Positions 14,322-14,775 of a stretch of DNA of 64,000 bases are shown here, piece by piece. The translations under genes and the position numbers were made by a program. The notes beneath the pieces are model-generated. The model did no database searches. It was not told the DNA's origin and saw nothing but the letters and a program-made list of their open reading frames with translations. Positions within the stretch are counted from its first letter, which is position 1, and each line of letters begins with the position of its first letter. This DNA is from Eledone cirrhosa (lineage: Eukaryota): positions 29,822,001-29,886,000 of the forward strand of contig OZ024758.1 in NCBI GenBank assembly GCA_964016885.1, in the 5' to 3' direction.

Positions 14322-14775
14322 CTATCTATCTCCCTCTGTGTTTTTTTCCTCTCTCTATATATCTCTCTCTGTTTCTTTACATGAATTTCTTCTCTCTATC
14401 TATCTCTCTATATCTATCTCTCTCTATTTAGTTGCATGCATTTCTTCTTTTTCTTCGTTTTTCTTTCTTTCTTTTTATAACTGTCCCTAATATTTTTCAC
14501 TACCAAATCAACTTTTCAAATGGAAGTTGAAGTTGAAAGGTATGTCGAATCTATCTACTTATAAGACTGTTTATATTGTATTTTGTCTGAAGAAGGCATA
14601 ACATATTTTTAATATGATATCCCTGAAATATATATAATGAAATAAATATGGTTTTATAAATATAGTTTCCATTTATTTAATATCGTAAATATACTCCAAA
14701 TACTTGTTGAGTGCTTTTATATCAGTTATAAATATTTACTCGTTGTAACCCAACAATTTAAATAAAACTTTGCAT
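13690..14775 (+). mobile_element. Degraded PLE 3' portion: possible GIY-YIG C-terminal remnant plus hammerhead-bearing terminal repeat (family A)
   Basis: 13880-13945 reads IESGI...NSDINLGI(F)KLD across frameshifts (tentative). 14540-14775 is homologous to the other family A copies. Confidence 0.6.
14579..14644 (+). ncRNA. Minimal type-I hammerhead ribozyme (family A)
   Basis: TATTTTGT-CTGAAGA-stem II-GAAA-T-ATAT-A-TA|ATGAAATA. Confidence 0.7.

Follow-up and report, generated by a model that had tools for sequence, protein, structure and literature searches.

A putative leader intron around a hammerhead ribozyme, and a duplicated hairpin at the tail ends, in a Hydra-clade Penelope-like element of Eledone cirrhosa

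The significance of intron retention in Penelope-like elements (PLEs) was described as unknown (PMC8557442), and antisense or unspliced templates have been offered as options to account for it (PMC3846280). In the Penelope element of D. virilis, a 75-nt intron located 46 nt after the start was verified by RT-PCR and is required for reporter expression (PMC2377424). This intron ends in helix I of the hammerhead, and a splice-dependent change of a PLE hammerhead has already been reported for D. virilis (PMC4209133). For an anole PLE, RNA with a dead ribozyme was inserted normally in vitro, and its cDNA starts at two internal stem-loop sites that match the tail ends (PMC11167929). The Hydra clade of PLEs is defined by features that include a DKT motif, a CxCX5C linker and (TA)n targets (PMC8557442).

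The window analysed here is the whole 64,000-nt stretch of contig OZ024758.1 of Eledone cirrhosa. An initial annotation had placed one of its hammerhead ribozymes inside a putative spliceosomal intron at 14540-14725 of the plus strand. When compared to the Hydra clade of C-terminal EN+ PLEs (Craig et al. 2021, PMC8557442), the element around this region shares the DKT motif, the CxCX5C linker, a single ORF of ~745 aa, a hammerhead with a canonical core near the 3' end, (TA)n targets, inverted 5'-truncated partners and an optional tail. It differs in a tail of ~90 nt against 30-40 nt, in a unit of ~3.9 kb against <3 kb and in an N-terminal motif that reads RWR instead of RWK; the available text of that source describes no intron, hairpin pair or helix P (the leader pairing discussed below) for Hydra. 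With the D. virilis Penelope (PMC2377424; PMC4209133) it shares a donor ~40-46 nt past an internal start in the pLTR, and a 5'-UTR intron, putative in Eledone, that lies beside the hammerhead and is kept in genomic copies. However, the D. virilis intron extends to the 5' end of helix I and thereby alters the ribozyme, while the putative Eledone intron would take out the whole ribozyme together with a hairpin at the likely start of reverse transcription (RT).

Three further systems are instructive. In the Anolis Poseidon element PAc (Frangieh et al. 2024, PMC11167929) the tail is likewise set by two 3' end positions, which there match internal RT starts at a stem-loop on an uncut RNA template, and the Eledone element can be likened to it. 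The PAc starts lie inside the ORF (nt 111-118) and its hammerhead overlaps the ATG, whereas the two Eledone ends fall at two copies of one hairpin within the 5' UTR. Chlamys-3_cRei shares a start in the pLTR and a leader intron (putative in Eledone), but it has no canonical hammerhead, carries an N-terminal endonuclease, and its intron is supported by long reads (PMC8557442). The non-LTR retrozymes (bioRxiv 10.64898/2026.07.22.740005) share type I hammerhead units related to PLE pLTRs; they form tandem arrays, in contrast to the Eledone copies in the window, which are dispersed solo or head-to-head pLTR fragments.

The region 14540-14725 is located within the pLTR/5' leader of a PLE that we assign to the Hydra clade on motifs and (TA)n targets rather than on a tree. 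A 231-nt query gave 1647 first-look candidates in the 3.0-Gb eukaryotic assembly. At one locus (L031), two pLTRs 3895 nt apart flank an RT ORF with YRDD and with a C-terminal endonuclease region, YVG..YNNH, that was identified by eye; Pfam matched none of three element proteins. A query with the N-terminal 160 aa gave 150 scored matches, many of them in open frames of ~745 aa, and many intact ORF copies of this length are present in the genome. DKT replaces DKG as KSDKTNN in families A and B and as PSDKTGN in family D, whose protein is ~45% identical to that of family A, and the linker reads CNCRDRSKC. The RT ORF between pLTRs, these motifs and the targets bear out the PLE assignment of the initial annotation. 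No relatives in other organisms were found in metagenome and viral sequence scans. The family labels A-I and the CL numbers were coined in the present analysis, and since the lineages are mutually related, counts across lineages given below are not independent.

The window copy itself is a 5'-truncated 3' fragment of ~1.25 kb on the plus strand (13542 to ~14775) that comprises the 3' UTR and the pLTR in its long-tail form, ends in (TA)n and has 87% identity to the 3' end of the ORF-bearing L031 over 1302 columns. A 250-nt repeat (92%) stands on either side of it (13241-13490 and 14821-15072). Head-to-head inverted pLTR pairs occur in the window at 51490-51875, 46600-47219, 42878-43342 with 45386-45857, and 52258-52480, usually with one short-tail arm and one short- or long-tail arm, as is typical of PLE insertions. 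The window also contains tandem arrays with periods of ~61 nt (22991-26555), ~47 or ~94 nt (32540-33735), ~54 nt (49489-50081) and ~54 nt (52766-53554). Elsewhere in the genome, a PIF1-like helicase fragment (Helitron-like, by eye) adjoins the full-length PLE at L031 8222-9367, and the ORF at L046 has an asparagine-rich stretch at about residues 480-505, between RT and linker, that resembles the N-rich inserts of rotifer Penelope ORFs (PMC3846280).

The hammerhead is of the type I minimal form and occupies 14579-14644 of the plus strand. Stem I pairs 14579-14586 with 14637-14644, the core CTGAAGA lies at 14587-14593, stem II at 14594-14624, and GAAA at 14625-14628 is followed by a palindromic helix III, with the predicted cut after 14636. 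The CUGANGA/GAAA/UH core and both stems are thus present, and the core is kept in all lineages examined. In an alignment of eight copies from different lineages, 95.1% of the alignment cells in the stems pair, compared with 89.3% in shuffles and 37-54% when the strands are slid; two-sided changes occur in 13 cells, a number matched by 0 of 500 shuffles (which is not a probability, as the rows are related), and five stem II pairs show them. The hammerhead motif first recognised from the letters is therefore confirmed by covariation, with self-cleavage as a prediction. Rfam gave no hammerhead match for this region, and for the whole window only microsatellite-driven miRNA matches among the 150 listed of 266.

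Several other hammerhead-like sequences were noted. At 2805 (plus) the window has the hammerhead of a different PLE family; the same motif precedes a family of 758-aa ORFs (L285-L290), in which GGTATGCC stands ~215 nt upstream of the core. An additional hammerhead-like family (CTGAAGAGGTCAC..GTGACGAAAG) has two window copies, at 43801 and 46210, both minus. In family D ~200 nt separate CTGATGA from GAAAC (L257, L259, L261, L265, L266, L336), and where the hammerhead core is expected in families F and E, the variants CCGATGA, CCGACGA and CCGACTA occur (L314, L330, L331).

Three GT..AG spans were confirmed in the window: the 186-nt putative intron at 14540-14725 (plus), of which the donor is plausible and the acceptor uncertain, and the equivalent regions at 39770-39951 (minus, 182 nt) in a C1 copy and at 46952-47118 (plus, 167 nt) in a C2 copy with GTACGT. 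The coordinates of the last stand, while its size reflects an internal deletion in that single copy and cannot serve as an intron length. The further donors at ~22938 (minus), 39346, 43009 (minus) and 51721, and the AG at 52340 (minus), were likewise found in the sequence. It was claimed that a donor lies upstream of the core in nearly all copies, and GTA(T/C)GT is indeed present in 10 of the 11 core-bearing window copies, the exception (52469) being cut at an inversion junction. The distance to the core is 25-47 nt, a slightly wider span than the 30-50 nt first given.

The donor-like motif G|GTATGTC lies at 14539-14546. In the nine near lineages, positions -1 to +7 read G|GTA(T/C)GTC, with 9/9 agreement at seven positions and 8/9 at +4, while the flanking columns agree in 3-7 of the nine except for one T at +13; the U2 5' splice-site consensus is thus conserved above its neighbours in these lineages. 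Among 231 clustered copies, most of them found by queries that included the motif, 206 retain GTA(T/C)GT. The four distant hammerhead lineages do not follow, as they have GGCATATC (three) or AGTATATC (one) at the donor place, which are poor donors, and three of the four show GC at the donor position. C at +7 is invariant in all 13 lineages that carry the motif (a 14th is without it), and this position is outside the donor consensus. The variants in the distant lineages indicate that the motif is also under a constraint other than splicing. In family D, AGTGTGTC or AATGTGTC is found near the donor place. As for the distant families themselves (L115 (minus, 2009), L080, L186, L188 and L225-L254), many copies of the L115 family begin at a palindromic GGAGTCATATGACTCC junction, and no ORF-linked copy of the GGCATATC family was found by a pattern search or among 30 loci.

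Upstream of the donor, CACTACC (14498-14504), which we take to be initiator-like, marks the inferred transcription start near 14499, with A14499 41 nt upstream of the donor. Copy 5' ends peak in the CACTACC bins in families A, C1 and B, in a sample biased by the DNA queries; CACTA(C/T)C recurs in families A, B, B2 and C, and the donor follows it by ~38-44 nt.

In ORF-linked copies the donor 8-mer also reads, letter for letter, as the reverse complement of GAC ATA CC, the ORF codons for D-I-P. In predicted folds its pairing with ORF nt 34-41 has p ~1.0 for A and C1, 0.97 and 0.40 for two C2 copies, and 0.4-0.8 for B and B2, where it is partly with a second site; a pairing of the donor with hammerhead stem II was not favoured in the folds. 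The match is the best 12-mer between the leader and ORF nt 1-60 in 4/4 families. However, when synonymous codons are drawn at random (for families A and C1 only), 8-12% of the recodings pair with the donor equally well, and the GTACGT subfamily leaves a C.A mismatch uncompensated, so that a function of this predicted pairing is a lead only.

The acceptor side is less regular. The initial annotation expected GT and AG to be conserved above their neighbours; this holds for GT, while the AG at 14725 is aligned in only 4 of 12 lineages, all in A and C, and it lacks both a strong pyrimidine tract and a clear branch point. Another YAG also comes before it: the first after the donor is TAG at 14663-14665, which is also conserved in A and C and is an alternative acceptor candidate for a 126-nt intron. 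The family-B long-tail copy at 45726-45955 (plus) has the donor and hairpin 1, with the aligned AG changed to TA. Its lack of AG had been recognised as a caveat of one copy; in fact it is a replacement throughout the clade, because the listed copies and the ORF-linked copies of this clade read TTGAGTGCTTCCAATCTA instead of AG. B2 and CL3 are likewise without the aligned AG, and seven window copies stop before the TTGAGTGC motif and so have no acceptor. B, B2 and CL3 have a pyrimidine run and AATAG after hairpin 2, within helix P. In every GT-bearing clade, then, one hairpin and only one is followed by a YAG; this is hairpin 1 for A and C and hairpin 2 for B, B2 and CL3, so that a YAG is available everywhere but not at one place.

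These hairpins also mark where insertions end. Hairpin 1 (14693-14716, ACTC..GAGT-GCTT) holds TTGAGTGC, which is the 3' arm of a general RCTC..GAGY-GCT hairpin, and short-tail insertions end at its foot by 3'-end mapping. Hairpin 2 (GCTC..GAGC-GCTT) lies 71-91 nt past hairpin 1, shortly before the ATG, in ORF-linked elements. It was predicted from family A and later found in B (10 of 13 pattern matches) and in C (72 pattern matches, 30 read), and both hairpins are present in families D, E and F. Copies earlier described as full-length and ending at the AG do not end there but ~50 nt later, at the foot of this second hairpin, as the fragment from 13542 to ~14775 does. Overall the distribution of 3' ends is bimodal. 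Of 159 clustered copies, 137 (49 A, 39 C1 and 49 B) stop short of the ORF, and every one of these ends within 14 nt of a hairpin start, the remainder running into the ORF. These two end positions define the PLE tail.

The sequence after hairpin 1 is predicted to pair with the sequence after hairpin 2 to form helix P. In the window copy its 5' strand is TCAGTTATAA (14722-14731), which contains the candidate AG (14724-14725) fully paired in the prediction, and the partner strand TTATAACTGA stands directly before the ATG in autonomous copies. The helix is formed by unrelated sequences in four clades, so its strands co-vary between clades. In a swap test, own-clade duplexes scored -8.0 to -14.6 kcal/mol and cross-clade duplexes mostly -0.8 to -7.4, with one F x CL3 exception at -10.6; z-scores for folding of the whole leader were modest (-1.8 to -3.2, 25 shuffles). 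The AG at 14725 thus has a structural explanation in the predicted helix P. Minimum free energy folds of the unspliced leader from ORF-linked A and C copies also place TTTCCATT (14666-14673) in a predicted pairing that covers the start codon of the ORF.

The position of the ORF agrees with the expectation that autonomous relatives start just past the AG. The ATG lies 94-98 nt 3' of the AG in 24 of 25 family-A ORF-linked copies and 121 nt in one, and therefore any intron sits in the 5' UTR. In family A the donor and the AG have four ATGs between them; between AG and ORF there is none in 17 of the 25 copies and one or more in 8. An ATG supplied by exon 1 was ruled out, since the joined sequence runs into a stop and the ORF brings an ATG of its own. 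Contigs from four runs of unrecorded kind, compared with L050:1110-1900 at 88% likeness, contained no donor-AG joint, an absence that is uninformative, since contigs can only reveal what is present and PLEs in any case retain their introns in DNA; contig coverage was several hundredfold deeper at the ribozyme than at the ORF, and this depth is not copy number. One contig (run X4, L050:1498-1616) joins ORF nt ~119 directly to the donor region, a joint absent from the loci examined, and suggests an internally deleted mini-element.

The 5' starts of 70 ORF- or tail-anchored copies bear on the template. Of these, 28 lay upstream of the inferred start and 8 coincided with it, 5 fell between that start and the core and 6 within the core or stem II; the aligner put 4 no more than 5 nt from the cut (one exactly, L209), and 19 lay further downstream. 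In 47 of the 70, then, the copy starts upstream of the cut and keeps the cut site intact, so the templates mostly held the whole putative intron. Insertions as a rule do not begin at the cut site, as they would from templates released by the ribozyme in the manner of R2, L1Tc or retrozymes. This agrees with the anole result, where ribozyme mutants inserted normally (PMC11167929). Fragments that start at or next to the predicted cut were seen at ~52286-52435 (minus) in the window and at L209, possibly a trace of occasional cleavage.

The initial annotation had joined intron and ribozyme in one proposal, in which spliced RNA is the mRNA and self-cleaved unspliced RNA the template, so that the choice between them explains intron retention. 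We consider this unlikely. The hammerhead core is conserved in all lineages, and ORF-linked L209 and the window copy at ~52435 (minus) do begin at the cut site, but the 47 copies that span it contradict a cleaved template unless the ends were re-ligated. Moreover, the cleaved 3' product is without the donor, so cleavage cannot explain why the donor is retained; minimal hammerheads cleave poorly and require dimers (PMC4209133), and anole PLE insertion is indifferent to ribozyme mutation (PMC11167929). The suggested protection of host pre-mRNAs finds no support either, as short-tailed copies have a donor without an acceptor. Re-ligation leads to another improbable account, in which RNA in tandem or dimeric form undergoes cutting and re-ligation, giving circles or multimers that restore the cut site and act as templates; equally improbable is its corollary that donor and AG are incidental or used in back-splicing. 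Circles have been proposed for PLEs generally (PMC4209133), the palindromic helix III suits dimer cleavage, and the X4 contig joins sequences as a short repeat unit would. Yet copy 5' ends concentrate at the initiator-like site instead of being spread round a circle, which fits a linear transcript.

We place a functional leader intron, putative as it is from sequence features, at about even odds. The particular form we prefer, to which we give a little under an even chance, is a 5'-UTR intron of the Penelope type that is retained because the predicted RNA hairpins at the likely RT start lie inside it, and not through hammerhead cutting; with that structure inside the intron, only unspliced, uncut RNA would be copied. 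The alternative with no functional intron is a real contender that falls clearly short of even probability. It takes RG(T/C)A(T/C)(G/A)TC to be an RNA-structure, protein-binding or internal-promoter motif whose resemblance to a donor arose by chance in one clade, the AG to be part of helix P, and the leader to be an unspliced folded RNA with the hammerhead and RT-start hairpins. The GC or A+5 variants in the four distant lineages, the invariant C+7, the exact complementarity to the D-I-P codons and the departures in family D all favour it, as do an AG that helix P accounts for and clade B replaces, and the metadata of PMC8557442, which, as available, note no intron for Hydra families. On the other hand, the donor match is perfect at -1 to +6 and spaced from the start as in the Penelope intron, every GT-bearing clade has a YAG after one of its two hairpins, and several upstream AUGs would impede scanning if the leader were unspliced.

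Under the preferred reading of a retained Penelope-type intron, transcription would begin in the pLTR near 14499, and G|GTATGT ~40 nt downstream would open the intron. The unspliced leader would fold with the donor paired to ORF codons near 11-14 and the candidate AG buried in helix P, into a domain that holds the hammerhead, two hairpins and helix P and, in families A and C, masks the AUG. The element protein may then initiate cDNA at hairpin 1 or 2, giving short- or long-tail ends, and copying back toward the 5' end would yield start-to-tail fragments and head-to-head pairs. Spliced RNA would lose four upstream AUGs, the ribozyme and hairpin 1, and so be well suited as mRNA and poorly suited as template. 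Families A and C would use 14725 or 14665 as the acceptor; in B it would be the YAG that follows hairpin 2, and splicing there would remove both hairpins. A more specific version, which we regard as doubtful, is that folding itself decides between template and message: the ORF codons would pair onto the 5' splice site and helix P would bury the AG, so that RNA in the folded state would escape splicing and display two RT-start hairpins, whereas RNA engaged by the spliceosome would be stripped of the ribozyme, the start-codon mask and the RT-start signal.

Earlier publications already describe hammerheads in PLE pLTRs, introns in the leader and a ribozyme variant that depends on splicing, and the general idea of an intron beside a PLE hammerhead is not new. 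In the openly accessible literature that was searched, we found no description of a full ribozyme inside a leader intron, nor of a duplicated hairpin with helix P at tail ends. Intron retention becomes a testable question in this PLE family, which is young, abundant and equipped with intact ORFs, and in which a duplicated hairpin and a co-varying helix mark the tail ends. If there is no intron, the pair of hairpins is still a candidate for the signal recognised by a Hydra-clade reverse transcriptase. If a switch between folding and splicing is true, it would provide a direct mechanism for the long-standing puzzle of PLE intron retention.
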